36,231 bases of DNA from an uncultured Myxococcales bacterium (GTDB lineage Bacteria; Myxococcota_A; Bradymonadia; UBA4248): NCBI GenBank assembly GCA_946415045.1, contig CAMKRB010000003.1:1-36231 (forward strand), written 5' to 3'. Position numbers and translations under genes: made by a program. Under the pieces are notes generated by a model. It made no database searches and was not told the DNA's origin. It saw only the letters and a program-made list of their open reading frames with translations. Positions 22,395-36,231 of this stretch are shown here, piece by piece. Numbering within the stretch: position 1 is the stretch's first letter; each line of letters opens with the position of its first letter.

Positions 22395-22589
22395 CGAATG
22401 ACCTCCAGACAACCCATAATAACGCATTCAGCGCCATCGTCCACCAATTAGATATACCGAATTGGAGCGAATTGTGCGATAGTAAATGCGACATGTGGCC
22501 GTTAGTCCTTCATGCCCCACACAATATCTATCAAAGAAGAGGTTGGCATTTTGGGGCAATTTTGCATACAGGAAACAGCAAAGGCAGAT

Positions 22590-23908: not shown

Positions 23909-25423
23909 ATGCAAAGACTGAGCGGTATTATTCGCAAGATTTTGTTTACGTTATTGTTTCTGATTTTACCGACGCTGGCAGTGGCGCAGGATGGTTTGCA
24001 TATCACAGGCATTGACCTTCCCGAAGAGGGTTCAAAAGCCGCCGAAGCACATGTTTCGGTGTATTTTAGTCTACGCAGCAAACAAACGCCTGTCACGGGT
24101 ATTACGAGCGACAATTGCACACTGCAGATCGATGCGAGCCCTGTGGAAATCGTCAAAGCAGAAGTCAAGCAGTTCACAGATGGCGAACGGGGAGTCGGTG
24201 TGTTGTTTGTCATTCCGATTGCCAAGAATTATTCGGAAGAAAGCTTTGGCATTCGTTCAGCACTTGACGGACTGGTTAAGAACCTGAACCGACCAGTAGA
24301 TATGCTGAATGTCGTGACGTACGACACGAATGCGGTCGCTGTAGGCTGGTCGCGGGCAAGCGAATCGGCGTTGTCGCAGGCCATCAATAACATGCAGAAC
24401 AGTGAAGTTCTTGAGCCAAACCTGTTCATGTCATTCCAACCGGCCCTGACCGCACTGCAAAGCTTGCAGAATGTTTCACAGAAATACCTGGTATTCGTCA
24501 GCGATGCCGAAGGTGCCATCGTTGGAGACAGAGACAAGGCCAACAAGCTGATTGGACAATTCACAGATGAGCTGAAGAAGAGCAACATCATGCCAATCGT
24601 GATTGCGTACAGTCCCGATGGCAAAGAGGCCATGATGAACTACACGCTGCTGCAGCGCATGGCTAACAACGTTGGTGGTGCGTTTTATATGGCCGAAGCG
24701 CCGGATCGTTTTCAGCAGGTGATTCAGCGCGATGTGCAGAACTACATCTTCGGTCAGTACATTTATGAAGCCACGCTGAACATGGACGGCAACCACTATC
24801 TTGAGCCGAACAAATACAACGTGGACTTCATCGTGAAGACCTCAAATTCGGAAGACAAGGTGAAGTACAAAATCACATGGCCGGAGCTTTCGAAGAACCG
24901 GATGTGGCTGTGGCTGACGATAATCGGCATTGTGCTGGTAGGCGGCATTGCAGCGGCAGTGATCGTAATCAGCCGGCGCAACAACGAAGAAGAGGACATC
25001 ATCGACGAGGGTCCGCAGGAAGTGTGCTGTTCGACGTGCGGCAAGACGATACCGCAGCAGCTGTATGGATTTAACGGTGAGTTCTGTCTTTCCGGCGGAT
25101 TGCCGGACTGTCCGTATTACAAGATGCCGGATCGCGGAAAGATTCAAATCACGCGAGGGCCGATGGCGGATACGACATTCTTTATCAAGAAGGACATGAC
25201 GACGATTGGATCGTATGCCGAGAATGATATCTATCTGGCCGATAAATCCGTGTCACGCAAGCATGCAGCCATCAAGGCAGACGAAGGCATGCGCTATGAG
25301 ATACGTGATTTTGGTTCATCCAACGGCGTTTACATCAACAACGAGAAGATCGAGCGCAAGTTCCTTCGGGACGGCGATTTGATTCGGTTTGGCACCGTGG
25401 AGACGGTATTCAAACTGAAATAG
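23909..25423 (+). CDS. Bitopic membrane protein: signal peptide, vWA-like exported domain, TM helix, Cys cluster, C-terminal FHA domain
   Basis: AAGGAGG RBS; vWA-like LVFVSD and LQRMANNVGGAFY; TM WLWLTIIGIVLVGGIAAAVIVI; CCSTC...C...C; FHA motifs D.SVSRKHA.I, D.GSSNGVYIN, LRDGDLIRFG. Confidence 0.82.
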   Translation: MQRLSGIIRKILFTLLFLILPTLAVAQDGLHITGIDLPEEGSKAAEAHVSVYFSLRSKQTPVTGITSDNCTLQIDASPVEIVKAEVKQFTDGERGVGVLFVIPIAKNYSEESFGIRSALDGLVKNLNRPVDMLNVVTYDTNAVAVGWSRASESALSQAINNMQNSEVLEPNLFMSFQPALTALQSLQNVSQKYLVFVSDAEGAIVGDRDKANKLIGQFTDELKKSNIMPIVIAYSPDGKEAMMNYTLLQRMANNVGGAFYMAEAPDRFQQVIQRDVQNYIFGQYIYEATLNMDGNHYLEPNKYNVDFIVKTSNSEDKVKYKITWPELSKNRMWLWLTIIGIVLVGGIAAAVIVISRRNNEEEDIIDEGPQEVCCSTCGKTIPQQLYGFNGEFCLSGGLPDCPYYKMPDRGKIQITRGPMADTTFFIKKDMTTIGSYAENDIYLADKSVSRKHAAIKADEGMRYEIRDFGSSNGVYINNEKIERKFLRDGDLIRFGTVETVFKLK

Positions 25424-25442
25424 CCCAGAGCGCAGAAAAAGA

Positions 25443-25472
25443 CCGGGTTCATCGTGAGCCCGGTTTTTTTTT
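25443..25472 (+). terminator. Intrinsic terminator (possibly bidirectional) after the FHA gene
   Basis: CCGGGTTCA-TCG-TGAGCCCGG with a T run downstream and an A run upstream. Confidence 0.85.
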
Positions 25473-25493
25473 AACAACAAATGATGTGAATGC

Positions 25494-25526
25494 GTGACAA
25501 GATTACGCAGACGTTATACAGTATAA
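25494..25526 (+). promoter_or_regulatory. Candidate promoter/operator of the tail module
   Basis: GTGACA-17bp-TACAGT, overlapped by the palindrome TTATAC-A-GTATAA (25514-25526) and the imperfect TGCGTGA-N5-TTACGCA. Confidence 0.35.
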
Positions 25527-25589
25527 GGTATGTATTTGGGCATTGTGCCTGTTTATGAACGCAATCTTCTGCGTGGCGGAAGATTTTCA

Positions 25590-25976
25590 ATGGGAAAAGA
25601 AGCAATGGCATTTCAGACCGAGTTTCAGTTTACACTTCCAAAAGGTTATGTGGACAAGGACGGCAATCTTCATCGCGAAGGCGTGATGCGTCTTGCGACG
25701 GCGAAGGACGAAATAGCCCCTCTGCAGGATTATCGTGTACAGGCCAACCGTGCGTATCTCGTCATCATTTTATTAAGCCGCGTCATCACCAAGCTTGGTA
25801 CGCTTCGCATGATCACACCGAACATCATTGAAGAGCTGTTCAGCTCGGATTTGGCATATCTGCAGGAATTTTACCGCAAGATCAATGAAGAAGGCAGCGC
25901 ATCGATCAAGGTGACATGTCCGGCATGCAAACACGAATTTGAAGTGGATATGGGGACAGGCCTGGGGGGGTATTAA
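25590..25976 (+). CDS. Contractile injection system tail assembly chaperone (short form)
   Basis: FQFTLPKGYVD.DG.LHREG.MRLATA.DEI...LLSRVI..LG...DL.YLQ.FY..IN...CPAC matches my recollection of eCIS-associated tail assembly proteins; lies next to the sheath gene. Start 25590 or 25605. Confidence 0.8.
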   Translation: MGKEAMAFQTEFQFTLPKGYVDKDGNLHREGVMRLATAKDEIAPLQDYRVQANRAYLVIILLSRVITKLGTLRMITPNIIEELFSSDLAYLQEFYRKINEEGSASIKVTCPACKHEFEVDMGTGLGGY

Positions 25977-26010
25977 GCTACCCCCTTGATAAGCTTTATC
26001 AGGAGGTAGC
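25964..26010 (+). promoter_or_regulatory. Programmed -1 ribosomal frameshift signal
   Basis: In-frame slippery heptamer G GGG GGG (25964-25970), 6-nt spacer TATTAA, stem-loop GCTACCCCCTTGATAA-GCT-TTATCAGGAGGTAGC (25977-26010). Confidence 0.78.
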
Positions 26011-26137
26011 GTATATCGCTTATCACTTCCATTGGGCGATAGACGACATCCTCAATATGGAGCATAAAGAGCGCCAGGTCTGGATTCGCGAGATTTCCGA
26101 GATCAACAAGGAAATCAACGAAAGCCGGGGTGGCTAA
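25970..26137 (+). CDS. DUF6760-like ORF, the -1 frame extension of the chaperone (not in the ORF track)
   Basis: Translates VLSYPLDKLYQEVAYIAYHFHWAIDDILNMEHKERQVWIREISEINKEINESRGG*. EVAYIAYHFHW is the recognisable family motif; no ATG/GTG/TTG lies between the upstream in-frame TGA (25940) and this motif. Confidence 0.85.
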   Translation, partial: VLSYPLDKLYQEVAYIAYHFHWAIDDILNMEHKERQVWIREISEINKEINESRGG

Positions 26138-26194
26138 CAAAGCGTCAAAGCGGGCGCGGGTTTAGTTCATGCAATAGTCGATGCAGAGGTAAAG

Positions 26195-27943
26195 ATGGCT
26201 AAGATCAGACTGCCGGGTGTATATTTTGAAGACAATCCAAAAGTAGAGCGCGAGATATCACTGGGGGAAACGGGAGTACCCGCGTTTATTGGCGTTGCCA
26301 GCCGTGGCCCGCTCAACGAGCCGGTGGTAATCCAAAGTGTCCAGCAGTTTCGAAGGTTTTTTGGAGAACCAGTAGAAGGCAGCTATCTGTATTCGAGTGT
26401 ATGGGGATTTTTCATGAACGGCGGGACGCGCTGTCATGTCATCCGCATCGCGCACGTATTCCGCAACGGCAAAGCAGAGCTGGCGCGTAAAGCCCGCTAC
26501 GAGCTTCTGGATGCATCGGGCTATCCCACACTGGAAGTCCTCGCCCACAGCGAGGGAAACTGGGGAAATGCAGTCAACATCCAGGTCTCATATCCCGAAG
26601 AATCGCGCGTCCACACGTTCATCACGCTCGATCTAGTGCCCGGATCCCACATGATCACGCTTCAGTCGACCCGCGGCATTGAACGCGGAATGCTGCTCAA
26701 GCTGTCGGACGGCGAGAATCAGAAATTCGTGACCGTAGAAAGGGTACGAGGAAATGAAATCTATTGGCGCGATGAGATCGATTGTGGCTTCCGATCTGTA
26801 TCCCCAACGTATGTCGACAGCGTCGAATTCGATTTACGCGTGAGCGAGGGCAAACGGGTAGAAAGATTCAACGGCGTTTCACTTGGCCGATGGTCGTCGC
26901 GCAACGTTGCGCGAGTTGTTGCACAGGATTCGGAACTCATCCGTGTAAACATTCTTTCGGACGGCAAGTACGAACAATACCCGGAGCAAACCAAACAGAT
27001 TCAGCTGCGCGGCGGTCGTGATGGTCTTGCCGGCATCACCCCCGACGATATCATCGGATACAACAACGGTCCGAGCGCCCGGTATGGCCTTGGCGTACTC
27101 GAATCGAACGAAGAAATCGATCTGGTCTGCGTCCCGGATTTGCAGTACTGCTTGGATCATTGTGAAGCATTCCGCAGCAGCCGCGATATGATCGGTGTAC
27201 AGACAGCGATTTTAAACCACTGCGAACGCATGGGCGACAGATTCGCGATACTCGATATGCCTCGCGATATCAAATACGAGCAAACCTATGACTATCGAAT
27301 GAAATTCGAATCGTCTTATGGAGCGCTGTACTATCCGTGGCTTATCATCAGCGATGACGGCAAAACGAAGTCTGTGCCACCATGCGGATTTTTGGCGGGT
27401 TTGTATGCGAAATGTGACCGTACAGAAGGCGTCTTTCGTGCGCCGGCAAATGTCGAGCTTCAGGGCGTATCATCACTGCACACGAATCTTGACGAAGGCC
27501 AGCTCACCGAACTGAATGAAAAAGGCGTGAACTGTATCCGTCAGTTTATGGCACGTGGCATTCGTCCATGGGGCGCCCGCAGCCTGACCAATGAACGCGA
27601 CTGGCGTTACCTGATGTCACGGCGAGTATTTTGTGCTGTAAAGCGTGCGATATATGAGAACACGCAGTGGGTGGTATTTGAAATCAACAACCAGGAACTT
27701 CGGGATCGGGTGAAAGACATGCTCGTCGATTTTCTTGGGAAATTGTGGGCGGCCGGGTATTTCCCCGGCAAAGTCCAGAAAGACGCATTTTTTGTGACAT
27801 GCGACAAGACGAACAACGACACCGAAGAAGGTGAGCAAGGAAAGATCACAATCGATGTCGGCATCGCCATCAGCCAGCCACTGGAATATCTTGTGATCAG
27901 TTTCGAGCACAAGATAGAGGAAGCGCAAAGCGTCGGCGTATAA
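26195..27943 (+). CDS. Contractile tail sheath protein (Afp2-4/gp18-like)
   Basis: PGVYFE, TGVPAFIG...RGP.N.PV, FF.NGG..C.V.R, DRFAILD, ALYYPW, VPPCG..AG.YA..D...GV.RAPAN, GIRPWGARSL, WVVFE.N. Confidence 0.95.
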   Translation: MAKIRLPGVYFEDNPKVEREISLGETGVPAFIGVASRGPLNEPVVIQSVQQFRRFFGEPVEGSYLYSSVWGFFMNGGTRCHVIRIAHVFRNGKAELARKARYELLDASGYPTLEVLAHSEGNWGNAVNIQVSYPEESRVHTFITLDLVPGSHMITLQSTRGIERGMLLKLSDGENQKFVTVERVRGNEIYWRDEIDCGFRSVSPTYVDSVEFDLRVSEGKRVERFNGVSLGRWSSRNVARVVAQDSELIRVNILSDGKYEQYPEQTKQIQLRGGRDGLAGITPDDIIGYNNGPSARYGLGVLESNEEIDLVCVPDLQYCLDHCEAFRSSRDMIGVQTAILNHCERMGDRFAILDMPRDIKYEQTYDYRMKFESSYGALYYPWLIISDDGKTKSVPPCGFLAGLYAKCDRTEGVFRAPANVELQGVSSLHTNLDEGQLTELNEKGVNCIRQFMARGIRPWGARSLTNERDWRYLMSRRVFCAVKRAIYENTQWVVFEINNQELRDRVKDMLVDFLGKLWAAGYFPGKVQKDAFFVTCDKTNNDTEEGEQGKITIDVGIAISQPLEYLVISFEHKIEEAQSVGV

Positions 27944-28074
27944 CCCCGGACCGGCGCAGCAAGCGCCGGCAATCAGGGACGTCAGGAAGAGCCGGTTACA
28001 CCATCCGAAGGCATGGAAGCCATGTATATTCAGTGATATAAAGGATGGTGAACCATGAATTGTTATCAGCCGGA

Positions 28075-28242
28075 TGTGCCAAAGTTGTCACACCCGAAAA
28101 CGGGCTTCAGGAAGGAGTTCGTAATGGGGACAGGATTCCCCAAGAAGCGAAAACGGCGTGCGGGCAGAAACCGCGCGAAACAAGGTATAGCAAAAGGATC
28201 CGATGTGTCACAATTGACACAACACTTGGATTTGAATTTGCA
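28075..28242 (+). promoter_or_regulatory. Candidate sigma54 promoter with two palindromic activator-type sites
   Basis: TGTGCCA-N4-TGTCACA (28075-28092), TGTGTCA-N4-TGACACA (28204-28221), and TGG-N8-TTGCA with GG-N10-GC spacing (28227-28242). Confidence 0.5.
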
Positions 28243-28329
28243 TATCGGAGTGGAAGGTATTTTTGGGAAAAGCAATCCCAGTAAACACAATGCTGTAAGA
28301 GCAGTAGCTGCAATCCTCAGGAGGACGGT

Positions 28330-28749
28330 ATGGACAAGGCACCTTTGGGATCATTTGGATTTAGAGTATCGCTTGGCGGTGGAGATTTGTCATTATTCCA
28401 GGAAGTGAGTGGCCTGGGCGTACAGATCAATGTGAAGGATCAGCCGGAAGGCGGTATGAATTTTAGTTCGCACAAAGTGCTGGACAATGCGACGTTTAAC
28501 GATGTGACGCTGAAGCGTGGTCTGATTGGCCCGGAGATGTTCAGCTGGATCAACGACGTGGTAGCAGGTAACATTCAGCGCCGCGCGGTGAAGATTGAAG
28601 TACTGGACGACAAAGGGAAACCGGCCAAAACGTTTATTTGTATGAATGCCATTCCAGTGAAATGGGATGGTCCGACGCTTAATGTCATGCAGGATGCGAT
28701 TGCCACCGAAACACTCGTAATCGCCATTGAAGGTCTGTCGGTTAGCTAA
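28330..28749 (+). CDS. Tail tube protein, T4 gp19-like (Afp1/Afp5 type)
   Basis: AGGAGG RBS; P...F.FRV, FQEVSGL, EGG.N, DVTLKRGL, W.......I.RR.V.I.VLD, NA.PVKWDGP.LN, IA.ETL.IA.EG. Confidence 0.93.
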   Translation: MDKAPLGSFGFRVSLGGGDLSLFQEVSGLGVQINVKDQPEGGMNFSSHKVLDNATFNDVTLKRGLIGPEMFSWINDVVAGNIQRRAVKIEVLDDKGKPAKTFICMNAIPVKWDGPTLNVMQDAIATETLVIAIEGLSVS

Positions 28750-28858
28750 ATCAAAGAGCGAACCAGCACCGTAGTTAGTCCCGACAGTTGCGGAAGCGAT
28801 CCCGACGGGAAGGGTTATAAACGGCCCCAGAAATGGGCACAGCAAGTGGAGATGAACG

Positions 28859-31800
28859 ATGTCAAACAGCAGGCATCCAGATATAGAAAATGGGACGGTT
28901 GGTCGCATCCTCCGTCGCATGACCCTGGCGACGCTGGGGTTAGATGCGATGGACGGGGTGTCCGAGCAATCGTTCGACGTGATAGACAAGGCAGATTCAT
29001 TTGCTGAACGCCTGATGGGCGGGATGTCAAGTGTATTGCCCAAGATTCATACCGAATACATGGAAAGCCGTGCGACAGGTCTGGTCGATCACATTCTGAC
29101 CGGCATGACGGGGTTAAATGGCCCCAAGAGTGCGACAGATCTTGGAGACTGGCAGTACTGGTTGGATGCAGCGCTTCTGATGCTCTTTGATGAAGAAGAG
29201 GATGAGGATGAAGCTGTGTATGCATCAGCCGGCAAAGTGGCGCACGCAGCAAAGAATACGCAGCAGGTTCGAAGCGCAGCGATGCAGCAGGCATTGCGTG
29301 AACGCGTTGTTGCACTGAAGAATTCAGGGATCAAACCGTCGATGCTTCAGGCATTGTCGAATGATCAGAAACGTGCTGTGATCAGCCAGCTCAATGCAGC
29401 CCGGAAAGCAACCGCAGAGCATACCTCCGAAGCCAGCAAATTCGCCGGACAAAAGGATGCAGATTCGCGCATTGCCGCCGAACTGAGCAACAATATTAAC
29501 GTTAATGGTGCACAGCAGTTTGCAGACAGCATCAAGGCCAGCCTGTTTGGCGACAGCCAGGCAGAAAGCGCGCTGTTTGCGAGCACATTGCTCAACGTGG
29601 TCAAAGAAGCCTCGAATCACCGCAGCATTGATACAGCTGCGAGCAAAATCGAACGCATCTATGGTCAGAATGCACAGAATTCGCACCAGACATTTGTATC
29701 GCACATTGCAGACAAGGCAGCATCCGTATCCGCCAGTCTGAACGATGCAAAGCAAATTGGTGTGCCAGCCGAACACCGTGCCGAAGCAATGCGTCTTGCC
29801 GAAAACTGGACAGAGGCAGTTGCCGGTCTGAATGCGTCTGGAAAAGTCGAAACAGCAAGCGTCCGCCGCATGCTGACGACGATCGATGCGTTGGAGCGCA
29901 TTGGTGCCGTTACCCGTGAACAGGCTCATGAAATCCGCAATGCCGGTCAGAGCTATGCCCGCCACATTCTCGCCGAAGAAGTATCGCGCGACATCACAAC
30001 GATTGCCGGCCGCATTGAACAGATGGTGGGCCGTGTATCGGATGTTGCCGGCACAGAAATGGTATCGCACCGTGCAATCACCTATACGGGCAACACTCCG
30101 AACGTCGAAGCCATCCAGATTCTCAGGAATTCGGTTGCAGCAATCAGCGACAAACTCGGTTCGCTGTCCGAAACCGTTGCATCCAAAGTATTGTCAGACG
30201 GTGAGACAGCCGCGACGATGCGTTGGCAGCGCGCAGCAGAACGCTTCACGCGTATGCAGGGCATTTCTGATGACGTCGATCGCGTGCTTCTGCGCGACAT
30301 CATCGAATCTGCCGAAGCTCTTGGCAGCACCGGTGTTGTATCCGCAGGCATGGTCAAAAGCATTGTCAGCATTCCTGCTCAGATCCAGAGCCAGAATCAG
30401 ACACCTGCAGCGGTGTCCTCCATCGCAGCAGCACAGAGCAGCAATGTCTCTGCATCCCAGAGCCGTTCTGTTCAGACCATTCTCAATGGCCGCGAAGCCG
30501 ACAAATACATCCAAAATTCTGCAATCCAGATGCTCAGCCGTATTTCAAGCCGCGTCGAAGCATCCGTGAATACACTCGCAGACGAAATCACAGCATCCGG
30601 CATCCTGCGTCCGCAGCAGGCCGAATCATTCGTTTCGGATATCCGCCGTATTGCAGCACAGGGTAAAACTGCAGCTGCAACAGATTCGCTTTCGGTTATC
30701 GAGACCTCCTCGATCATCGAATCCCTCAGTGAAAAACTCGATCAGTTTGCACAGTTCACGGCGCGCAACGTCGTTGAACAGGGCTATGATGAGCTCACCG
30801 GTGAAACACCTGCATTCGTATCCACCAGCGAAACAGCCGCACAGTCTGAGAACGTCAGTGCAAGTGCTGCAATGAACGCAGCCGCAGTTTCCTCGGTACG
30901 TGAGCTGCAGGTCGCTTTACAGAAAGCCCAGCAGACAGCCCAGGCTCAGATTCGCTCGTTTGTCGAAACACAGCAGGCATCCGCAAAGCAGGCCGAAAGC
31001 CGCAAATTCTTCGAAGCACTTGCATCCGCAAATACTGTCGAAGCCATGGTGAAAGCCCAGAATGCGCTGTCAGCCCATCTGTCGGCAGAACAGCAGTCGC
31101 AGCTCAAGCAGACAATCGAAGCCGTTCGCAGCAGTGAAGCGCATCTCGAGAACGTCAGCCGTCAAATCCGCATGATCGAAAATGCGGTCAAACTCTCAGG
31201 CGATCTCAAGAATGTACTGAACAGCGGCATCCATACAACAGCGCAGACACTTGCAAACCGTCCGCAGACCGGCAGCGTCATCAGCGCTCCCGTGATGCTC
31301 AGCGATGTCCGCGTCAATGGCGACTATCTTGCATCACTCGGCCAGACACTGGCATCCTATGCAAGAATCCGCAATGAGTTTGCCAAGGTTCAGAGTGGCT
31401 CAACATCGTTGTTAAGCGGCATGGATGTATCCCGTCTCGACAAAATGCTCTCCATCGTCAGCCCGGTTTCTTCCCGGAATGTGGCGCAGGATCAGAAATT
31501 GTCAGGATTTGCAGGCATTCAGGCAGCAGCATCCATGGATACACTGCGCAAGATCCATGGCCGTACAGATCACCAGAATCTGAGCATCTCTGCAGCAGAT
31601 GCGGATTTGGTCAAGCAGTATGCAGCCATCGGAAACTTGGATATGGTCTATCAAATTGCCAATGAAGCCGGCCATTCGGCATCATCGGTATCCGAGAGCA
31701 CCGAACTGACAGGCAACACCGAACTGACGCGTTTGTTCAACACGCTTTCGGCACAGCCGGAACTTGCCAGACGCATTGCTGAAATGGCAGCAACCGGCAA

Positions 31801-33853
31801 GAGCACCCAGGCCGGCGTTCTCCAGAACAACCGCATTGCTGAGTTCCTCGACAGCATTTCGTCGTCCAATCCCGAAACGGTTGTCGGCTATGACGAGATC
31901 ATTCCCGAAACGGCATCGTTCGTATCGCAGCAATCCGCTCGCGGCCTGTATCCTTCGAACGACAACTACAGCGATTTGACTTCTATCCTTGGTTCGCGCA
32001 AAGCCATCGAACTTCACGCCTCCGAAATGGCAACAGGTCGTCCCGGCAGTGCCCAGACGCTCGGTCAAGCCATTGAACGTTGGGCAGCATCCGCTCATGG
32101 CAACGATTCGTTTGTGTCATACGGCATCAGCGAAAACGGCGAGCGCGTCAAAGTAACCCTTGGCCTGACTCAGTCATCCGGCAATGGCGGCTATCAGCTT
32201 CGCCAGAACATGGGTTCATCCTATATGCCGGTATCGTCGCGTCAGACCGTCTCCAGCCCGGTTGCAGCATCCCTGAATATCGACAAGATCAGTTCGTCCC
32301 AGACCATTTCGGGTGCCGAAGAGTTCATGCCGGTGATTGCAGGCGCCAACCAGACCTATTCTGCATCCGATGCCTCCACCGATCGCATTCTGACCTCGCT
32401 GGTCGCTTCTCTGGCCGGAAATCAGAATATTTCACAGACACTCTCTGTCGAAGGTAATACGCTCACAGCCGCACAGCAGGCGATGGTTCAGTCGGCCGTC
32501 CAGGCACAGAATGCACAGAACACGCAGAATGCCTCTTCTTCGGATTCCGCTGCATCCCAGCGCGAAGCCGCAATGCAGAACATTCTCAATCCTCGCACGC
32601 ACCAGTCTCAGGCACAGGCCAATGCTCAGGCCATTGCAGATCGCAACACCATCAGCGGTATCCTGGGTCGTCTGGGTATCCAGATCAACGCCAACCGCAT
32701 GCCCGAAACAAGCGAACGTCTGCAGCTGAACGTTGGTAACGTCGATTTCGATATGACATCGGCCGATTTCGTCAACATGGTTGCCAAACCCGCCATTTCG
32801 TCCACCAGCTTCATGGCCCCGACACTCGTGAATGCCAATAACGTGATGTTCTCAGGCTATGCCTCGCTGATGAACAGCCAGGGCGAACGCCGCAGCCTCA
32901 AATCCCTGCGCAAATCGTATGTCGAAGCCATGGCAAAATCCGGTGCTCGCAGCACGCACGCTGAGATCGGCTTCAATACGCAGTCGTTTGCAAACATCCT
33001 TGGACTGACCTCCGGATCGATCGCAAGCGATAATCGCTATCGCATGGTTAACGGCGGCTATGATGCCGACAGTTCACATGCATTTGTTTCGTCTGCATCG
33101 ATCGATGCATCCGCATCTTCGACGGCATCCGCATCCGCACCCGAAGCCCGCATCGCAGCACAGGGCCAGATGGCAGGCCAGACCGAAGAAACGCTCGCAC
33201 AGTCGATCATCGACGGACATGCACCTGTGGCCAGCACCGAATATGGCAGCAGCGTCGACTTCTCGTGGATTTCGAACCAGCTCATGCCGCAGTTCAATGC
33301 CGGCAGCAATGCTGCATCCGAAAGCCAGACAGTCGAAAAAGAGCGCCAGATCCTTGGCCGCATCGACAACATGCTCGATTATGTCGAGAATATGAGTTCG
33401 CGCAATGTCGGCGTGTTCAGCTCAAATGACACCGTCCGCGTATTGCTCGAATCGATGTCAACCGAAGGTGAACTCGGTAACAAGGGATTGCCCAAGTGGC
33501 GTCAGAAAGACACGAAAGCTGCCCGCGCGGCTCAGGCTCGCGAACTCCGCGAAGCACTCGCCAAAATCGGTGCGAACCCAATCCAGGGTACACAGCGTGT
33601 CAATGATCGCAACTACGTCAGCCCGAATCTGTTCGCAAACCAGAATCAGGCGGCAGCCCCCCTCTTCAGCGGTGGCGGTGAAAATGGCAGTGGTTCCGTT
33701 CCAACTGCGGCTTCGCACGCCAGTGGTAATACTAACAATCGCTTGGACAACAGCACCATCCCAGAGGATGATCTGCAGTTCATAGCCGAAGAAATTTATA
33801 ACAAAATCGTTGACAGTCTTAACGACGAACTCAAGCGTAGGAGGACAGAATAA
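28859..33853 (+). CDS. 1664-aa Ala/Ser/Gln-rich protein; tape-measure or cargo candidate of the injection system
   Basis: Uninterrupted ORF between tube and initiator genes, GGAG RBS, TAATG-coupled to the next gene; no Cys, signal peptide or obvious TM helix. Function inferred from position and composition only. Confidence 0.6.
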   Translation: MSNSRHPDIENGTVGRILRRMTLATLGLDAMDGVSEQSFDVIDKADSFAERLMGGMSSVLPKIHTEYMESRATGLVDHILTGMTGLNGPKSATDLGDWQYWLDAALLMLFDEEEDEDEAVYASAGKVAHAAKNTQQVRSAAMQQALRERVVALKNSGIKPSMLQALSNDQKRAVISQLNAARKATAEHTSEASKFAGQKDADSRIAAELSNNINVNGAQQFADSIKASLFGDSQAESALFASTLLNVVKEASNHRSIDTAASKIERIYGQNAQNSHQTFVSHIADKAASVSASLNDAKQIGVPAEHRAEAMRLAENWTEAVAGLNASGKVETASVRRMLTTIDALERIGAVTREQAHEIRNAGQSYARHILAEEVSRDITTIAGRIEQMVGRVSDVAGTEMVSHRAITYTGNTPNVEAIQILRNSVAAISDKLGSLSETVASKVLSDGETAATMRWQRAAERFTRMQGISDDVDRVLLRDIIESAEALGSTGVVSAGMVKSIVSIPAQIQSQNQTPAAVSSIAAAQSSNVSASQSRSVQTILNGREADKYIQNSAIQMLSRISSRVEASVNTLADEITASGILRPQQAESFVSDIRRIAAQGKTAAATDSLSVIETSSIIESLSEKLDQFAQFTARNVVEQGYDELTGETPAFVSTSETAAQSENVSASAAMNAAAVSSVRELQVALQKAQQTAQAQIRSFVETQQASAKQAESRKFFEALASANTVEAMVKAQNALSAHLSAEQQSQLKQTIEAVRSSEAHLENVSRQIRMIENAVKLSGDLKNVLNSGIHTTAQTLANRPQTGSVISAPVMLSDVRVNGDYLASLGQTLASYARIRNEFAKVQSGSTSLLSGMDVSRLDKMLSIVSPVSSRNVAQDQKLSGFAGIQAAASMDTLRKIHGRTDHQNLSISAADADLVKQYAAIGNLDMVYQIANEAGHSASSVSESTELTGNTELTRLFNTLSAQPELARRIAEMAATGKSTQAGVLQNNRIAEFLDSISSSNPETVVGYDEIIPETASFVSQQSARGLYPSNDNYSDLTSILGSRKAIELHASEMATGRPGSAQTLGQAIERWAASAHGNDSFVSYGISENGERVKVTLGLTQSSGNGGYQLRQNMGSSYMPVSSRQTVSSPVAASLNIDKISSSQTISGAEEFMPVIAGANQTYSASDASTDRILTSLVASLAGNQNISQTLSVEGNTLTAAQQAMVQSAVQAQNAQNTQNASSSDSAASQREAAMQNILNPRTHQSQAQANAQAIADRNTISGILGRLGIQINANRMPETSERLQLNVGNVDFDMTSADFVNMVAKPAISSTSFMAPTLVNANNVMFSGYASLMNSQGERRSLKSLRKSYVEAMAKSGARSTHAEIGFNTQSFANILGLTSGSIASDNRYRMVNGGYDADSSHAFVSSASIDASASSTASASAPEARIAAQGQMAGQTEETLAQSIIDGHAPVASTEYGSSVDFSWISNQLMPQFNAGSNAASESQTVEKERQILGRIDNMLDYVENMSSRNVGVFSSNDTVRVLLESMSTEGELGNKGLPKWRQKDTKAARAAQARELREALAKIGANPIQGTQRVNDRNYVSPNLFANQNQAAAPLFSGGGENGSGSVPTAASHASGNTNNRLDNSTIPEDDLQFIAEEIYNKIVDSLNDELKRRRTE

Positions 33854-34506
33854 TGAACTTTAATGAAGCACTCAGCAAACTGTGCAAATTAACCATTGTC
33901 GCCATCGAGAATCCTGGCGGATCCGTTTCGGCATTCTACAATCCAAAGGAGGTCTCATTCTCCAAGTCTGTGAAATGGGCCCCCGATAGCCAGGGTATGG
34001 CTACGGATTATCCCGCGCTGCAGTTCACCAACGGTGATGCCATCTCTTTGTCCGTCGATCTGTACTTCGATCTCTATGAAGTTGGTGGCGATGTGCGTCC
34101 GTTCATCAACACACTCATGGCTTACTGCCTCAAGCACCCGCAGGATGGTGGCGAAGAACGTCCGCCCAAAGTCAAGGTTCTTTGGGGTGGCGAACTCCTC
34201 GCTGGTACGTCGTTCGAAGAGGCTGTTATCGACAACGTTTCAGTCACATACACGATGTTCCACGCATCCGGTGCACCCTGCCGTGCAAAAGCTACCGTCA
34301 AGATGACTCAGGCTCTCGCAGTCGGTGCATCCGTCGATGGCTCCAAACACTACAACGTCACAAGCGCCGCCCAGGGCAGCCAGATTCCTGGATTTAAGGA
34401 ATATTGCGAACAAAACAACATCGATATGACAAACCCCAAATCCTACGAAAACGGCATCAGCTATAGCTCCGCTTCCGGTTCGGATAGTGGTGGTGGTGAT
34501 AAGTAA
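33853..34506 (+). CDS. Tube initiator / baseplate tube protein (Afp7/Pvc7-like)
   Basis: YNPKE.SF.KSVKW, P.LQFT.G....LS..L.FD.YE, RPP.V...WG, VI..VSV.YTMF...G.P.RA..TV.M; C-terminal LysM is degenerate. Confidence 0.85.
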   Translation: MNFNEALSKLCKLTIVAIENPGGSVSAFYNPKEVSFSKSVKWAPDSQGMATDYPALQFTNGDAISLSVDLYFDLYEVGGDVRPFINTLMAYCLKHPQDGGEERPPKVKVLWGGELLAGTSFEEAVIDNVSVTYTMFHASGAPCRAKATVKMTQALAVGASVDGSKHYNVTSAAQGSQIPGFKEYCEQNNIDMTNPKSYENGISYSSASGSDSGGGDK

Positions 34507-34556
34507 CCCGGGTAACAAATCTGCTTATTCGATAATTAAACCATAAGGAGGAAATT

Positions 34557-35636
34557 ATGCCCGGCATCAGAACACCAGGATTCAGAATGACGATTGGTGG
34601 AAGATCCTTTAATGAGGAACCCAAAAAGAATCACGTCGCACAGATTACTGTCGAACAGACCGCCGATGGCGCGAGCTCATTCGAAGTGATTCTCGACGAT
34701 TCTGCCAATATTTATTCTCAACAAGATCCTATCAAAGAAGGTGAGAGCTGCTCAATTTCTCTCGGTTTCGCAGAAAAAGGCGGCCCAAAGCCTGTATTCT
34801 CCGGCACCGTCAGCAGCGTCAAAATTAAACGTAAAGAAAGCGGCCGCAAGCTCATTTATGTGAAAGGTTACGATCCATTGTATGGACTCACGACCGGTAG
34901 AAAACGTCGCTCGTGGGAAGAGATTAAAGACTCCGACCTCGTCAGCGAAATCCTCTCCGATCACGGCATCAAAATCGCCGAAATCGAAGATACTGGTATC
35001 ATTCTGCCGTTCGTCGTCCAGAACAACCTCAACGACCTCAACTTCCTGCAGGAACGTGCCAAACATAATGGCTACGAACTCAAGTACGAAACCAATCCCG
35101 AACGCGATGGCGCTGTATTCGCCAAGCCCAAAAGAAGCGATGGCGGCGCTATCCTCCGCTGGGATGCTGCAAAGGAAGACGGCGCAACCGCTCTCCTGCA
35201 GCGCTGCGATTTCGATACATCCACCATCAACCAGCCAAACGCTGTCGTCGTTCGTTGGTACGATCCAGATGCAGCCGAGCCTATCATCGGTAAAGCTGCG
35301 GATGTCACCGGCGATAAAATGGGCGGCAGTATCAGACAGGGTAACACCTCTCACACCATCCAGATCAGCGATATCCCCGTCTACAGCGCCGAAGAAGCTG
35401 AACGCGTTGCGCAGAGTATTCTCGATCAGCGCGCCGGTGAATACCTCACCGGTGTTGGTCAGTGCATCGGCTGCCCCGATGTGCTCTGCGGACACAAAGT
35501 CAAAATCGAAGACGTCGGCCCCGACTTCACTGGTGATTACTATGTCACCGAATGCAAGCACGTCTTCAAAGTCGGTGGCGGCCGCGGTTTCGGTTACTGG
35601 ACTTCCTTCAAAGTCTCCAGAACCGGCAGCCACTAA
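34557..35636 (+). CDS. Baseplate hub, phage late control D / gp27-like (N-terminal VgrG/Afp8 region only)
   Basis: TAAGGAGG RBS; I.LGF.......VFSG.V, L..GRK.RSW...KDSD.V..I, VVQ.N.NDL.FL.ERA...GYE, G.G...G.PD...G..V.I..VG..F.G.YYVT...H. Confidence 0.88.
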   Translation: MPGIRTPGFRMTIGGRSFNEEPKKNHVAQITVEQTADGASSFEVILDDSANIYSQQDPIKEGESCSISLGFAEKGGPKPVFSGTVSSVKIKRKESGRKLIYVKGYDPLYGLTTGRKRRSWEEIKDSDLVSEILSDHGIKIAEIEDTGIILPFVVQNNLNDLNFLQERAKHNGYELKYETNPERDGAVFAKPKRSDGGAILRWDAAKEDGATALLQRCDFDTSTINQPNAVVVRWYDPDAAEPIIGKAADVTGDKMGGSIRQGNTSHTIQISDIPVYSAEEAERVAQSILDQRAGEYLTGVGQCIGCPDVLCGHKVKIEDVGPDFTGDYYVTECKHVFKVGGGRGFGYWTSFKVSRTGSH

Positions 35637-35658
35637 CCTTTAATCTCAATCACACTTC

Positions 35659-35685
35659 AGCGGCGCGTTACGCGCCGCTTTTTTT
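35659..35685 (+). terminator. Intrinsic terminator closing the tail module
   Basis: AGCGGCGCG-TTA-CGCGCCGCT stem with a T7 tail. Confidence 0.9.
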
Positions 35686-35700
35686 ATGCCCGGAGGTTAT

Positions 35701-36231
35701 ATGAATATCGCCATCATAGGCACAGGACGCATGGGAACCGCACAGGCCAGACTCGCCCGCGTATTCGCCGACACCATTGTTTTTGCCGTCGATTCAAATC
35801 CCAATGCGCTCACTGACTTCTCCGCCGAATTCCAAACCCCTTGTTTTGCCTCAATCGACGCAGTACCACCGGAATTATGGACGCACCTCGACCTGCTGTG
35901 GCTTGTCGTTTGCGACGATCAAATCACATCGGCAGCGTCCGTCCTGACCTCCCGCATTCAGCCCAAAACTGTCGTATTTCACACAAGCGGCGCACTGTCC
36001 TCACAAATCCTTAAACCATCACTGCCAAATAATCCCTGCGCTTCCCTGCATCCGCTCATCGCCTGTCCCCTCAAATCCGTCACCGATGATGATTGCGTCA
36101 AAACCTATCAAAATATCATCCACACATTCGAAGGTGATGATCGCGCCATCGATTTGGCAAAACAAGTCGTTTCGCGCATCCACGGCCTGTTCACCCAAAT
36201 ACAAAGCGACAAAAAACAACTCTACCACGCC
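35701..36231 (+). CDS. Rossmann-like + DUF2520 oxidoreductase (PanG-like), truncated by the window end
   Basis: GGAGG RBS; manual translation MNIAIIGTGRMG...LVVCDDQI...VFHTSGALSS..L...ASLHPL...EGD...K.LYHA; frame is open to the edge. Confidence 0.85.
   Translation, partial: MNIAIIGTGRMGTAQARLARVFADTIVFAVDSNPNALTDFSAEFQTPCFASIDAVPPELWTHLDLLWLVVCDDQITSAASVLTSRIQPKTVVFHTSGALSSQILKPSLPNNPCASLHPLIACPLKSVTDDDCVKTYQNIIHTFEGDDRAIDLAKQVVSRIHGLFTQIQSDKKQLYHA

Follow-up and report, generated by a model that had tools for sequence, protein, structure and literature searches.

A contractile injection system very probably dispersed over six loci in an uncultured Myxococcota bacterium of ruminant guts

Affinity and gene content of the module

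Particles of Afp and PVC normally contain several sheath and tube paralogs, and a scattered gene layout is unusual for such injection machines. The genome of an uncultured Myxococcota bacterium of ruminant guts likewise encodes two sheaths and three tubes, here known from their genes. By sequence, both sheaths are closest to those of class-II contractile injection systems (CIS; Streptomyces-like and haloarchaeal). The best Protein Data Bank sequence matches of the 391-aa sheath (sheath391) are 8bky (9e-138), 8bl4, and 9ezm, followed by the sheaths of PVC, Afp, Anabaena, and Algoriphagus, of a pyocin (4e-20), and of T4 (gp18; 1e-11); its identity to Streptomyces loci is 55–59%. The 582-aa sheath, which is the longer and faster-evolving of the two, has its best matches in 9ezm, 8bky, and 8bl4, with E values from 1e-75 to 9e-72; the sheaths of Afp, PVC, Anabaena, and Algoriphagus follow, and a pyocin sheath scores 3e-7. 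An affinity to T6SS or phages was rejected, because T6SS sheaths are absent from the Protein Data Bank sequence matches of either protein and phage-type sheaths score far weaker; neither sheath nests among phages by these matches.

The window, i.e., the whole stretch of 36,231 nucleotides that was analysed, is an entire contig (C3) of a MAG. A CIS operon of about 10.1 kb (25549–35679) forms a single unit that comprises an inner-tail and hub module (Table 1). Matches to Pfam and the Protein Data Bank and an AlphaFold model bear out the genes listed in an earlier note (chaperone, sheath, tube, giant ORF, initiator, and hub), which had, however, overlooked a conserved frame encoding DUF6760.

Table 1. 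Features of the operon and its flanks (positions in the window)
Feature	Positions	Strand	Remarks
ProB	22512–23738		upstream flank
FHA protein gene	23909–25423		upstream flank
Intrinsic terminator hairpin	25434–25472	+	ends FHA gene; upstream module boundary
Promoter-like site	25494–25522	+	GTGACA / 17-nt spacer / TACAGT; consensus scan, 9/12 matches
Tail-assembly-chaperone-like protein, 128 aa	25590–25976	+	single C-terminal CPxC motif
Run of seven G, phased G_GGG_GGG	25964–25970	+	two codons before chaperone stop; candidate −1 slippery site
DUF6760 frame, 55 codons	25970–26137	+	−1 frame relative to chaperone gene; Pfam PF20546, E 1.8e-15
Sheath paralog, 582 aa	26195–27943	+	Pfam Phage_sheath_1 and Phage_sheath_1C
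Tube paralog, 139 aa	28330–28749	+	Phage_T4_gp19, E 1.8e-29; directly 5' of giant ORF, adaptor position
Ser/Ala/Gln-rich protein, 1664 aa	28859–33853	+	tape-measure position; putative tape measure
Tube initiator, Cis7/Afp7 type, 217 aa	33853–34506	+	Pfam CIS_tube, E 1.9e-21
Baseplate hub, 359 aa	34557–35636	+	Phage_GPD, E 9.3e-12
Intrinsic terminator ending operon	35659–35686	+	hairpin 35659–35679, 9 pairs (8 G-C), then T-run
Rossmann/DUF2520 gene	35686–contig end		downstream flank

The first gene product has no Pfam family and matches no Protein Data Bank chain by sequence. It is found in 73 of 80 related CIS loci of several phyla, with identities of 93–98% inside the family and 77–81% across the class. 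Calling it a chaperone is reasonable because its AlphaFold model (pLDDT 84.8) resembles the HK97 tail assembly chaperone (2ob9, the best Foldseek match among solved structures; E 0.09, probability 0.93) and, in a viral structure library, T4 gp51-like proteins (E 5e-8) and Mu FS-gp41 (E 2.4e-3).

The window tube occupies the position where Afp5-type adaptors sit. In NCBIfam it scores higher with CIS5_fam (5e-21) than with CIS1_fam (2.8e-8), but all three tubes of the genome do so, and all remain under the curated cut-offs, so that the comparison does not discriminate. The 1664-aa protein has no match in Pfam, NCBIfam, the Protein Data Bank, or the ESM Atlas. In 5/5 relatives examined, a single ORF of 1487–1767 aa takes the equivalent position (three of these were scanned, with no Pfam match), and both termini are conserved at 29–48% identity; from position, size, and composition only, it is probably, if on a weak call, the tape measure that sets tail length. 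The initiator matches 9qgl_7A, Afp7, All3321, and Pvc7 by sequence in the Protein Data Bank. The hub aligns with residues 32–340 of the 589-aa All3320 and covers positions 9–349 of 547 in NCBIfam VgrG_rel, and a spike on contig C50 covers positions 368–520, which by sequence identifies the hub as the N-terminal (gp27/gpD) half of a VgrG-like protein whose spike half is a separate gene. A 117-aa ORF at 28055–28408 has a counterpart in no relative and is probably not a gene.

As stated in the earlier note, no spike, PAAR, gp25, Baseplate_J, cap, capsid, or integrase genes are present among the window ORFs scanned, and the same is true of terminase and lysis genes. The remaining genes of the window are housekeeping genes (SecD, SecF, RecJ, MetRS, MiaA, and others); an Arf-like small GTPase at 1451–2146 is a candidate MglA, the protein from which the earlier note had argued that the system could serve in predation or contact killing. 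The flanks are those previously named, but proB and FHA are absent within 3–4 kb upstream of the module in 7/7 relatives with upstream sequence.

Boundaries and transcription of the operon

Both bounding terminators had been predicted, and both hold: the region 25430–25480 folds at −23.9 kcal/mol (z −5.65; 0/200 shuffles fold as well), and the downstream signal is a stem of nine pairs with a T-run. The RNA data are assembled metatranscriptome contigs from the ruminant gut, taken from several studies, which carry neither strand nor expression level and may include carried-over DNA. In run X1, a 10,118-nt contig spans 25549–35644, with another contig terminating at 25447. On the upstream side, two studies yield RNA contigs that terminate at 25435 and 25447, where a DNA contig runs through; on the downstream side, the RNA contigs of three runs terminate at 35644–35649, where the DNA contig continues. 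The stops seen in X1 recur in runs X2 and X18, which come from other studies, whereas DNA run X4 has everything in one contig. The coincidence of the RNA contig ends argues against DNA carry-over, and the operon is transcribed as a unit, end to end. Because RNA contigs begin at 25547 (X2) and 25549 (X1), just 3' of the promoter-like site, the first gene starts at ATG 25590 and not at 25530, as had been assumed. The promoter-like site alone is at chance level (10 sites in the consensus scan vs 9.0 expected).

A candidate frameshift between chaperone and DUF6760

DUF6760, of which the genome has a sole copy, is offset by −1 from the chaperone frame in 85/86 loci, across phyla. The median pN/pS of the region is 0.16 in this frame vs 1.4 and 1.8 in the other two; coding-like evolution is seen only in DUF6760's own frame. 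All 85 loci have in the overlap either a phased G_GGG or an X_XXY_YYZ heptamer of the canonical type; among 4271 control ORF ends, the numbers are 296 and 135. Phage G/GT chaperones carry a frameshifted extension, and the arrangement suggests that a similar −1 ribosomal frameshift on the G-run would produce DUF6760 as an extension of the chaperone.

It is nevertheless quite possible, if not quite probable, that DUF6760 involves no recoding and is a small gene in its own right, coupled in translation to the chaperone gene by a stop-start overlap. An ATG, GTG, or TTG is available in the DUF6760 frame of 50/85 loci, which permits ordinary coupled initiation; in actinomycetes, the start is typically a GTG that overlaps the TGA stop, with a G-rich, Shine-Dalgarno-like run before it. 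A 4-nt overlap by itself gives the −1 phase, NCBI annotates DUF6760 proteins as free-standing, and no conserved, potentially stimulatory RNA structure was found downstream of the G-run. The common five-G form, CTG GGG GAA, falls outside the canonical heptamers, which also counts against a frameshift. No RNA or DNA contig has an indel at the G-run, and the one natural in-frame fusion of chaperone and DUF6760 may be a homopolymer sequencing error. By contrast, 35/85 loci, including the window, have no ATG, GTG, or TTG from the upstream stop to the start of homology, and loci without a G-run carry classical slippery heptamers instead (C_CCG_GGG 13 times, G_GGA_AAC and G_GGA_AAA once each). Moreover, the glycine codon stays GGG across phyla of very different GC content, and the chaperone fold resembles phage proteins that bear a frameshifted extension, such as Mu FS-gp41.

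Complementary parts and breakage of an ancestral locus

The earlier note had read the module as the middle portion of a dispersed system and named the parts to be sought. Genome-wide family searches recovered exactly one more set of parts, on five other contigs: cap, sheath391, and a 144-aa tube (tube144) on C139; a small Zn-ribbon protein, gp25, Baseplate_J, a gpI-like wedge (I), a fibre, and two more small genes on C16; a 352-aa gene and the spike on C50; PAAR on C56; and the third gp19-type tube on C42. Hub, Cis7, cap, gp25, Baseplate_J, and spike V-domain are single copies; PAAR is represented by one clear gene and one weak match (E 0.08). Pfam matches of neighbouring genes place these loci among housekeeping genes (YchF, MutS, YbeY, tRNA methyltransferase, and penicillin-binding protein). 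A CIS ATPase was not identified, since none of at least nine AAA+ paralogs, each with a C-terminal CDC48-like domain, adjoins a CIS gene or matches a CIS-specific model. There was also no sign of co-regulation, i.e., no 10-mer (one mismatch allowed) shared by at least four of eight upstream regions.

The MAG is 87% complete and consists of 504 contigs, so that parts may be missed and the six loci are seen on separate contigs. Contigs end 546 bases past the hub operon in the window and 247 bases past the tube gene of C139, and sheath and tube paralogs are able to break assemblies. An assembly or binning artefact that conceals a contiguous locus is, however, extremely improbable. What follows the hub operon is a terminator and then the DUF2520 gene rather than a contig end, and a 35,452-nt DNA contig from another run covers 25300–36231 at ≥99% and continues for about 10 kb on the upstream and 14 kb on the downstream side. 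Among 20 hub loci of relatives, the hub-to-DUF2520 junction recurs in 8 (genera g1 and g3), all independently assembled. Modules containing gp25 have no hub upstream (7/7) and cap-sheath-tube loci no CIS gene downstream (7/7); their flanks are non-CIS for several kb. The dispersed parts belong to the same organism and are not mis-binned, because three relatives carry several modules on one contig: G025 has main cluster, PAAR, and spike at spacings of 57 and 207 kb, G002 the wedge module and the spike, and G006 the hub module and the cap-sheath-tube module.

Nine of the 20 hub loci (families f2, f3, f4, and f6, and genus g2 of the window's own family) hold, on one strand, cap, sheath391, tube144, chaperone, sheath582, tube139, an ORF of about 5 kb, Cis7, hub, and gp25-J-I-fibre; a tenth is truncated at the hub, where its contig ends. 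In one locus the hub is followed by a penicillin-binding-protein gene and then cap-sheath-tube, and in another by no CIS gene. The ancestor thus had everything from cap to fibre in one locus, whereas spike, PAAR, and third tube lay apart from it even then; within the clade of the window, one break occurred after the major tube and a second between the hub and the Zn-ribbon/gp25 gene.

With two sheaths and three tubes in the genome, a promoter and terminator of its own, and sharply different evolutionary rates (within the genus, sheath391, tube144, and cap are about 96% identical, but window tube, giant ORF, Cis7, and hub only 37–56%), the module might be a second, separate or co-opted tail-like machine that does not assemble with parts from other loci. 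This is very unlikely: two complete machines cannot be built with a single hub, Cis7, cap, gp25, Baseplate_J, and spike, and each of the nine contiguous loci has one baseplate set for the two sheaths and the two linked tubes. In Afp and PVC, it is normal for one particle to contain several sheath and tube paralogs, and the matches include Afp2, Afp3, Afp4, Pvc2, Pvc3, and Pvc4. The suggestion that the minor paralogs reside here and the major ones elsewhere is borne out only in part: it agrees with the adaptor position of the window tube and with the 96% within-genus identity of the C139 sheath and tube vs 66–77% and 47–56% for those of the window; it gains nothing from the CIS5 and CIS1 scores.

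The partial and scattered layout, the lack of an identified CIS ATPase, and the fast divergence of hub, Cis7, tube, and giant ORF (pN/pS up to 0.54) would also fit a decaying, non-functional remnant of a complete CIS or prophage tail, which we regard as highly improbable. Intact ORFs of all parts are present in 15–16 of 16 other genomes of the family (hub, spike, and third tube in 16/16, Baseplate_J and PAAR in 15/16) although synonymous sites are saturated. Median pN/pS of the five window genes is 0.05 (chaperone) to 0.54, with pN < pS in all; dS is mostly saturated and omega approximate. Furthermore, the RNA libraries of several studies hold the operon end to end, and capsid, terminase, integrase, and lysis genes are lacking among the window ORFs scanned.

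The existence of complementary parts, the contiguous loci of relatives, and the intact, transcribed genes support the split-system reading; very probably, the operon is the inner-tail and hub module of one class-II CIS, the remaining parts of which are encoded in five other transcription units. It would supply the chaperone with its DUF6760 extension, second sheath, tube paralog, probable tape measure, initiator, and hub, and the C139 locus cap, major sheath, and major tube. The products of the dispersed loci may assemble into one particle, which would inject effectors into other cells. Because sister families within the class keep the genes from cap to fibre contiguous, the scattered layout is a derived trait of the window's clade, and an unusual one for such machines.

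The window operon and its complementary loci

The genome to which the window belongs (G000; 3.82 Mb in 504 contigs, 87% complete, with the window as the entire contig C3) carries the parts of a contractile injection system (CIS) in separate neighbourhoods. Between 25.5 and 35.7 kb, the forward strand of the window encodes six products, which are by Pfam assignment and order a small protein, a sheath, a tube, a giant ORF, a CIS_tube protein (Cis7), and a hub. The remainder of the window is ordinary chromosome, with genes for a HemN-like radical-SAM enzyme, an Arf-like small GTPase, a pseudouridine synthase, SecD, SecF, RecJ, a methyltransferase, a DD-carboxypeptidase, MetRS, MiaA, a GNAT acetyltransferase, a beta-lactamase-family protein, ProB, and an FHA protein. 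The earlier note had read this module as the middle portion of a host-domesticated system dispersed over several loci, and it was right in its main inference: the CIS module is real, complementary parts lie on five other contigs, and the junctions recur in other assemblies.

Features of the dispersed system of G000 and their positions (those on C3 are positions of the window)
Feature	Contig	Position	Strand	Length	Description
Upstream terminator	C3	25434-25472			Ends the FHA gene; hairpin and U-run, -23.9 kcal/mol, z -5.65
Promoter-like site	C3	25494-25522			
First gene product (chaperone-like)	C3	start ATG 25590	+	128 aa	No Pfam family
Chaperone gene with DUF6760 frame	C3	25590-26137	+		DUF6760 ORF of 55 codons, Pfam E 1.8e-15
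Sheath582	C3		+	582 aa	Pfam Phage_sheath_1 and Phage_sheath_1C
Sheath-tube gap	C3	27944-28329		385 nt	
Rejected ORF	C3	28055-28408		117 aa	Dropped as a gene
Tube139	C3		+	139 aa	gp19-type (Pfam)
Giant ORF	C3		+	1664 aa	No Pfam family
Cis7	C3		+	217 aa	Pfam CIS_tube; sequence matches to Afp7, Pvc7, and All3321
Hub	C3	34557-35636	+	359 aa	Phage_GPD
Downstream terminator	C3	35659-35679			After the hub gene
Penicillin-binding-protein gene	C139	3440-6115			Transglycosylase type; upstream of the cap
Cap	C139				Pvc16_N
Sheath391	C139			391 aa	
Tube144	C139			144 aa	
Zn-ribbon gene	C16	11400-11594		64 aa	Locus L005; module flanked by YchF and a SIMPL protein
gp25	C16				
Wedge protein J	C16			1006 aa	Baseplate_J
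Wedge protein I	C16	15058-15951			Locus L005; PASTA and gpI-like; top NCBIfam match CIS12
Fibre	C16			518 aa	N-terminus matching CIS13
Two small conserved proteins	C16				
Spike neighbour	C50	3775-4833	+	352 aa	Conserved; no family match; precedes the spike
Spike	C50			284 aa	Phage_base_V; VgrG_rel positions 368-520
Spike neighbour and spike together	C50	3775-5903			Locus L016
PAAR protein	C56			104 aa	
PAAR neighbour	C56	3231-5948	-	905 aa	Four DsbA/thioredoxin domains
Third tube	C42				Flanked by MutS and YbeY

The copy numbers of these parts in G000 amount to the inventory of one machine. Baseplate parts are present once each, at four loci (hub on C3, spike on C50, PAAR on C56, and gp25, J, and I on C16), alongside two sheaths, three Phage_T4_gp19 genes, one CIS_tube gene, and one Pvc16_N gene for the tail terminator cap, which adjoins sheath391. 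There is no single contiguous locus for all structural genes in G000, where they occupy six contigs; relatives outside the split clade do hold the genes from cap to fibre in one contiguous locus. No capsid, terminase, or integrase gene was found among the scanned ORFs of the window or the scanned neighbours on the five other contigs. The NCBIfam models CIS1 and CIS5 do not discriminate between a major and an adaptor tube among the tubes of G000.

Even the VgrG-like protein is divided between two genes, one for the hub in the window and one for the spike at another locus. In alignments, the hub corresponds to the first 300-odd residues of VgrG-like chains (580-640 aa) from solved CISs and covers positions 9-349 of the 547 positions of the NCBIfam model VgrG_rel. 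The protein encoded next to the spike, which precedes it in all five loci compared, could be an adaptor or an effector. Two ORFs on the opposite strand beside spike and PAAR were rejected; they have no family, and tblastn against relatives favours the other strand. The PASTA domain of wedge protein I is N-terminal; PASTA is a peptidoglycan-binding module that is usual on penicillin-binding proteins and Ser/Thr kinases.

By its position, conserved size, conserved termini, and Ser/Ala/Gln-rich composition, the product of the giant ORF is a putative tape measure. It has no match in Pfam, NCBIfam, the sequences of the Protein Data Bank, or the ESM Atlas (where the best score, 0.82, is too low to be useful), and three of its orthologues likewise have no match in Pfam. 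No ATPase of the Afp15/Cis15 type could be tied to the system. Among 35 AAA matches in G000 are at least nine AAA+ paralogs of 692-974 aa (on C5, C6, C13, C14, C23, C171, C220, C241, and C252) with a CDC48-like domain at the C-terminus, which is the architecture of Afp15 and Pvc15. Each also has a long N-terminus of its own, and one of them has a WHD domain. None of these paralogs is adjacent to a CIS gene or matches a CIS-specific model, and NCBIfam returned only generic CDC48, IteA, and FtsH models and one Lon protease for ten AAA proteins of G000. The top NCBIfam match of the expanded group is the anti-phage ATPase IteA, far below the cut-off. A Walker-A scan of ±10 kb around the sheath in 11 loci of distant relatives found no candidate, and the flanks of five contiguous Myxococcota loci yielded a single one, an AAA+ homologue 13 kb from the locus of the relative G011.

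The window module fits one transcription unit. DNA nearly identical to positions 25500-29000 occurs in 19 public runs from 12 studies, eight of them RNA libraries, and the runs with a recorded organism are ruminant-gut metagenomes, excepting X19 ('gut metagenome') and X15/X16. Three RNA runs from three studies were compared with one DNA run over 25300-36231. In the RNA run X1, a single contig of 10,118 nt spans 25549-35644 and a separate contig stops at 25447; in X2, a contig ends at 25435, with a restart at 25547 and an end at 35649; and in X18, the final contig stops at 35644. The DNA run X4 has one contig of 35,452 nt (at least 99% identity) that crosses both operon boundaries. The ends of the RNA contigs from several studies coincide with the promoter-like site and the two terminators, which fits an mRNA of about 10.1 kb; as assembled contigs, the RNA runs show presence and joins rather than level or strand, and carry-over of DNA is formally possible. 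The contig ends near 25549 also place the start of the first gene at its tabulated ATG. The host is a Myxococcota bacterium from cattle and sheep guts, and the operon is found in all eight RNA libraries. Within the operon, the gap between sheath and tube, which measures about 260-520 nt in relatives, is a possible place for an internal promoter or for processing; the ORF it contains has a counterpart in no relative.

Conservation and break-up of the cluster

Homologues of the hub gene are present in all 16 other genomes of the window's own family (f1) and in every genome of the families f2 (1/1), f3 (1/1), f4 (7/7), and f6 (2/2), and are absent from f5 (0/7) and f7 (0/6). Like the hub, the spike and the third tube occur in 16 of the 16 other f1 genomes. 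J and PAAR were each found in 15 of them, J being missed in G008 (89% complete) and PAAR in G005, and all these matches are open frames without internal stops. The CIS genes are under selection. Relaxed selection had been named beforehand as the mark of a remnant, and the median pN/pS of the five window genes, at 0.05 for the chaperone, 0.24 for sheath582, 0.36 for tube139, 0.38 for the hub, and 0.54 for Cis7 (Nei-Gojobori, window and 6-9 relatives), speaks against it; these values are rough because dS is saturated in most pairs. Identity within the genus is 93-98% for chaperone, sheath391, tube144, and cap, 80-89% for J, I, and fibre, about 70% for spike and PAAR, and 37-56% for the window tube, giant ORF, Cis7, and hub. 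The dS of the chaperone gene (0.9-1.3) lies below that of its saturated neighbours, which hints at nucleotide-level constraint or strong codon bias.

The gene order of relatives places the split layout in an evolutionary series. Among 20 hub loci mapped with the proteins of G000, nine are contiguous (G011, G017, G018, G021, G023, G025, G033, G036, and G039) and have, on one strand, cap, sheath391, tube144, chaperone, sheath582, tube139, giant ORF, Cis7, hub, Zn-ribbon, gp25, J, I, and fibre; the giant ORF (1487-1767 aa) and the Zn-ribbon gene were seen in the five contiguous loci examined for ORFs. Eight loci (G001, G003, G004, G005, G007, G008, G009, and G016) have the split layout of the window, with the DUF2520 gene after the hub. 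In G006, a gene for a penicillin-binding protein follows 1.8 kb after the hub and precedes the cap-sheath-tube genes; in G012, non-CIS genes follow the hub; and the locus of G019 is cut by a contig end at the hub. The modules are separate also when approached from the other side: none of seven gp25 modules has a hub upstream, and none of seven cap-sheath-tube modules has a CIS gene for 4-19 kb downstream. The DUF2520 junction downstream of the window operon is shared with relatives, and the proB/FHA flank upstream is shared with none of the seven relatives that have upstream sequence.

Spike, PAAR, and third tube are unlinked from the main locus even in genomes with the contiguous form; in G025, for example, the spike lies 207 kb and PAAR 57 kb from it on the same contig. 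YbeY adjoins the third tube in both loci compared. Because the tip parts are separate even there, the ancestral cluster lost them first. In a second step, within f1, it broke at two points, one behind tube144 and one separating the hub from the Zn-ribbon/gp25 gene. The old contiguous form is kept in one genus of f1 (g2), and the split form is found in g1, g3, and g4.

Smaller neighbours of the modules are conserved to different degrees. The Zn-ribbon gene is always immediately upstream of gp25 (L005; also L040, L042, and L044-L046) and lies between hub and gp25 in contiguous relatives; its product reaches 218 aa in f4. The penicillin-binding-protein gene is directly upstream of the cap in four genomes of the genus (also L036, L134, and L137), where its product is 42-49% identical among the four and the cap 96-97% in the three relatives. 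No upstream 10-mer (one mismatch allowed) is shared by four or more of eight upstream regions of the dispersed loci.

The chaperone-like gene and the DUF6760 frame

The protein encoded by the first gene of the operon is present in 73 of 80 related loci. It has no sequence match among family profiles or Protein Data Bank chains and no relative in any solved CIS particle, which fits an assembly factor that stays outside the particle. Its structural model (30-sequence alignment, pLDDT 84.8) has the HK97 tail assembly chaperone as its best, though weak, match in the Protein Data Bank (E 0.09, probability 0.93, TM 0.47/0.56), followed by YqbN; its matches to viral models are with T4 gp51-like 'baseplate hub assembly' proteins (E 5e-8) and with Mu FS-gp41 (E 2.4e-3). 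Phage tail assembly chaperones such as lambda G/GT, Mu gp41/FS-gp41, and P2 E/E+E' are made via a programmed -1 frameshift. The likeness extends to a short, conserved -1 ORF behind a phased slippery run, DUF6760, which lies directly behind the chaperone gene and weakly matches Phage_P2_GpE (E 0.17). In contrast to the phage genes, the chaperone gene precedes the sheath gene and does not lie directly between tube and tape measure. No mention of the DUF6760 family was found in the literature searched.

The arrangement is conserved in 85 of 86 loci with both genes (L034-L130) from Myxococcota, actinomycetes, Chloroflexota, cyanobacteria, Planctomycetota, and archaea, although kinship among the loci inflates the counts. 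In these 85, the DUF6760 frame is in -1 phase, and each has at least one of two elements in the short overlap of the frames, G_GGG in phase (83 loci) or a heptamer of the canonical form X_XXY_YYZ (40 loci), including G_GGG_GGG, C_CCG_GGG, G_GGG_GGA, G_GGA_AAC, and G_GGA_AAA. The other ORF ends of these loci, 4271 in all, have G_GGG in 7% and a heptamer in 3% of cases. The DUF6760 ORF is coding in its own frame only (median pN/pS 0.16 vs 1.4 and 1.8 in the other two).

These properties make DUF6760 a candidate for a phage-like G/GT extension produced by -1 frameshifting, a reading that we judge slightly more probable than its opposite. Plain stop-start coupling would allow DUF6760 to be made with no recoding and would be permitted by the GTGA overlap of actinomycetes; in 35 of the 85 loci, that of the window among them, the DUF6760 frame lacks any ATG, GTG, or TTG. 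As to transcriptional slippage, none of the RNA or DNA contigs has an indel in the G-run, but rare variants are lost from assembled contigs, which makes this result uninformative. No stimulatory RNA structure was detected behind the G-run in an RNAalifold consensus of 20 loci (-0.56 kcal/mol, no compensatory pair). Natural fusions of chaperone and DUF6760 were found in two of 12 longer candidates, one a single-member fusion and the other a deletion chimera, and weigh little either way. The single-member fusion, a database protein of 174 aa, is exactly the predicted frameshift fusion and possibly results from a homopolymer sequencing error.

Affinity to other systems and biological meaning

Ranked by E-value against the sequences of the Protein Data Bank, both sheaths match those of CISs and extracellular CISs (eCISs) best (E 9e-138 to 1e-27), with pyocin and T4 far weaker, and no chain of a T6SS (TssC-type) sheath is among the matches of either. 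gp25 matches TssE, and PAAR the T6SS PAAR model, only below the cut-offs. The best 80 genomic relatives of sheath391 come from Myxococcota (69-91%), then from Planctomycetota, Chloroflexota, cyanobacteria, Halobacteria, Methanosarcinales/ANME, and many actinomycetes; Streptomyces sheaths are 55-59% identical to it. Sheath matches and genomic relatives together group the system with the class-II CISs, to which it belongs, judging by these sequences. Characterised class-II CISs are described, in passages of the respective reports, as cytoplasmic (Streptomyces, PMC10066040) or as membrane-anchored like a T6SS (haloarchaea, PMC11566945); because members of the class differ in mode, phylogeny is no guide to how the system of G000 acts. 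The CIS13-like N-terminus of the fibre and the PASTA domain on the wedge protein hint at a contact with the envelope.

The top structures matched by sheath391 are 8bky and 8bl4, which we take to be actinomycete CIS entries. Two tube homologues are also present in the Streptomyces CIS (CIS-Sc, dbeCIS clade IId; Casu et al. 2023, PMC10066040), as is the chaperone-like gene with DUF6760 behind it in the -1 frame, a pair that lies downstream of sheath and tube there. Passages of that report describe one sheath and one contiguous cluster (sco4242-4260) and report neither an Afp13-type fibre nor a typical tape measure (PMC10066040). By contrast, G000 has two sheaths, three tubes, a CIS13-like fibre N-terminus, a 1664-aa protein in tape-measure position, a split VgrG, and at least six loci. 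The cytoplasmic cell-death role of the Streptomyces CIS is not to be assumed for the system of G000. The same pair of chaperone and DUF6760 occurs in the haloarchaeal and Methanosarcinales loci among the best 80 relatives of the C139 sheath, a likeness to the T6SS-like CIS of haloarchaea (clade IIa, PMC11566945). Parts of that report describe the Halogeometricum cluster as interrupted, with two subclusters 8.7 kb apart, which is a further likeness, and place the haloarchaeal CIS in a single plasmid locus with the ATPase in the cluster and membrane anchoring via a six-helix protein (PMC11566945). In G000, by contrast, the parts are in separate chromosomal neighbourhoods.

The part list of G000 resembles that of Afp and PVC, with sheath and tube paralogs, an Afp7-like initiator, gp25, J, I, fibre, PAAR, and a DUF4255 cap. 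Afp and PVC comprise 16-18 genes in one operon-like locus, whereas the genes of G000 are scattered and have a phage-like order (sheath, tube, tape measure, initiator, hub); the hub-spike is a fused protein of 580-640 aa in the solved homologues but corresponds to two genes at two loci in G000. Placement of spike, PAAR, and an extra tube away from the core recalls T6SSs with orphan hcp, vgrG, and PAAR islands. Unlike these, G000 has a cap, Cis7, and a protein in tape-measure position, and the core itself (sheath/tube, hub, wedge) is split. In the large-genome relatives of f4 (G019, G023, G027, G030, G033, G036, and G039), the spike V-domain is matched 4-13 times in each genome. Several of these matches are inside proteins of 1850-2230 aa, some of them in tandem, and look like exchangeable spike-toxin fusions.

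Closest by phylum are the eCISs of uncultured Myxococcota, which share with G000 a gp19-type tube linked to the sheath in a phage-free cluster and for which passages of the two reports propose a role in predation (PMC11937823; bioRxiv 10.1101/2024.12.19.629468). Passages on marine Myxococcota describe contiguous eCIS clusters whose tube genes are highly expressed in metatranscriptomes (PMC11937823), and those on Haliangiales a syntenic CIS of ten genes (bioRxiv 10.1101/2024.12.19.629468). These systems differ from that of G000 in being syntenic single clusters, dispersal not being mentioned in the main-text passages of either report (PMC11937823; bioRxiv 10.1101/2024.12.19.629468). No description of a dispersed CIS other than T6SSs was found in the literature searched, supplements excluded.

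The system of G000 combines a well-resolved evolutionary path with evidence of expression and a recoding hypothesis that reaches beyond the genome. That a ruminant-gut clade builds one CIS from a regulon of at least six unlinked operons, and that class-II CISs share a conserved DUF6760 -1 frameshift on a G-run, may both be true, a conjunction to which we give a little less than an even chance. If the dispersed regulon is real, it would be the first CIS outside the T6SSs with a dispersed structural core, and cluster-based catalogues would systematically miss such systems. Surveys of CISs and eCISs detect gene clusters; a conserved and expressed split core implies that contiguity is not required, so that functional systems may exist in genomes that surveys score as 'partial' or 'negative'. 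To our knowledge, the G/GT mechanism has so far been known from phages only. The arrangement of chaperone and DUF6760 is shared by Streptomyces, Chloroflexota, cyanobacteria, Planctomycetota, haloarchaea, ANME, Methanosarcinales, and Myxococcota, and if the frameshift is true, CISs would have this phage mechanism, DUF6760 would gain a function, and a classic case of phage recoding would extend to injection systems in two domains of life. The series within the clade, from a contiguous locus to a three-way split, offers a model for stoichiometry and co-regulation after the break-up of an operon. For the ecology of the rumen, the system represents a possible device for antagonism or predation, with its operon transcribed in the guts of cattle and sheep.
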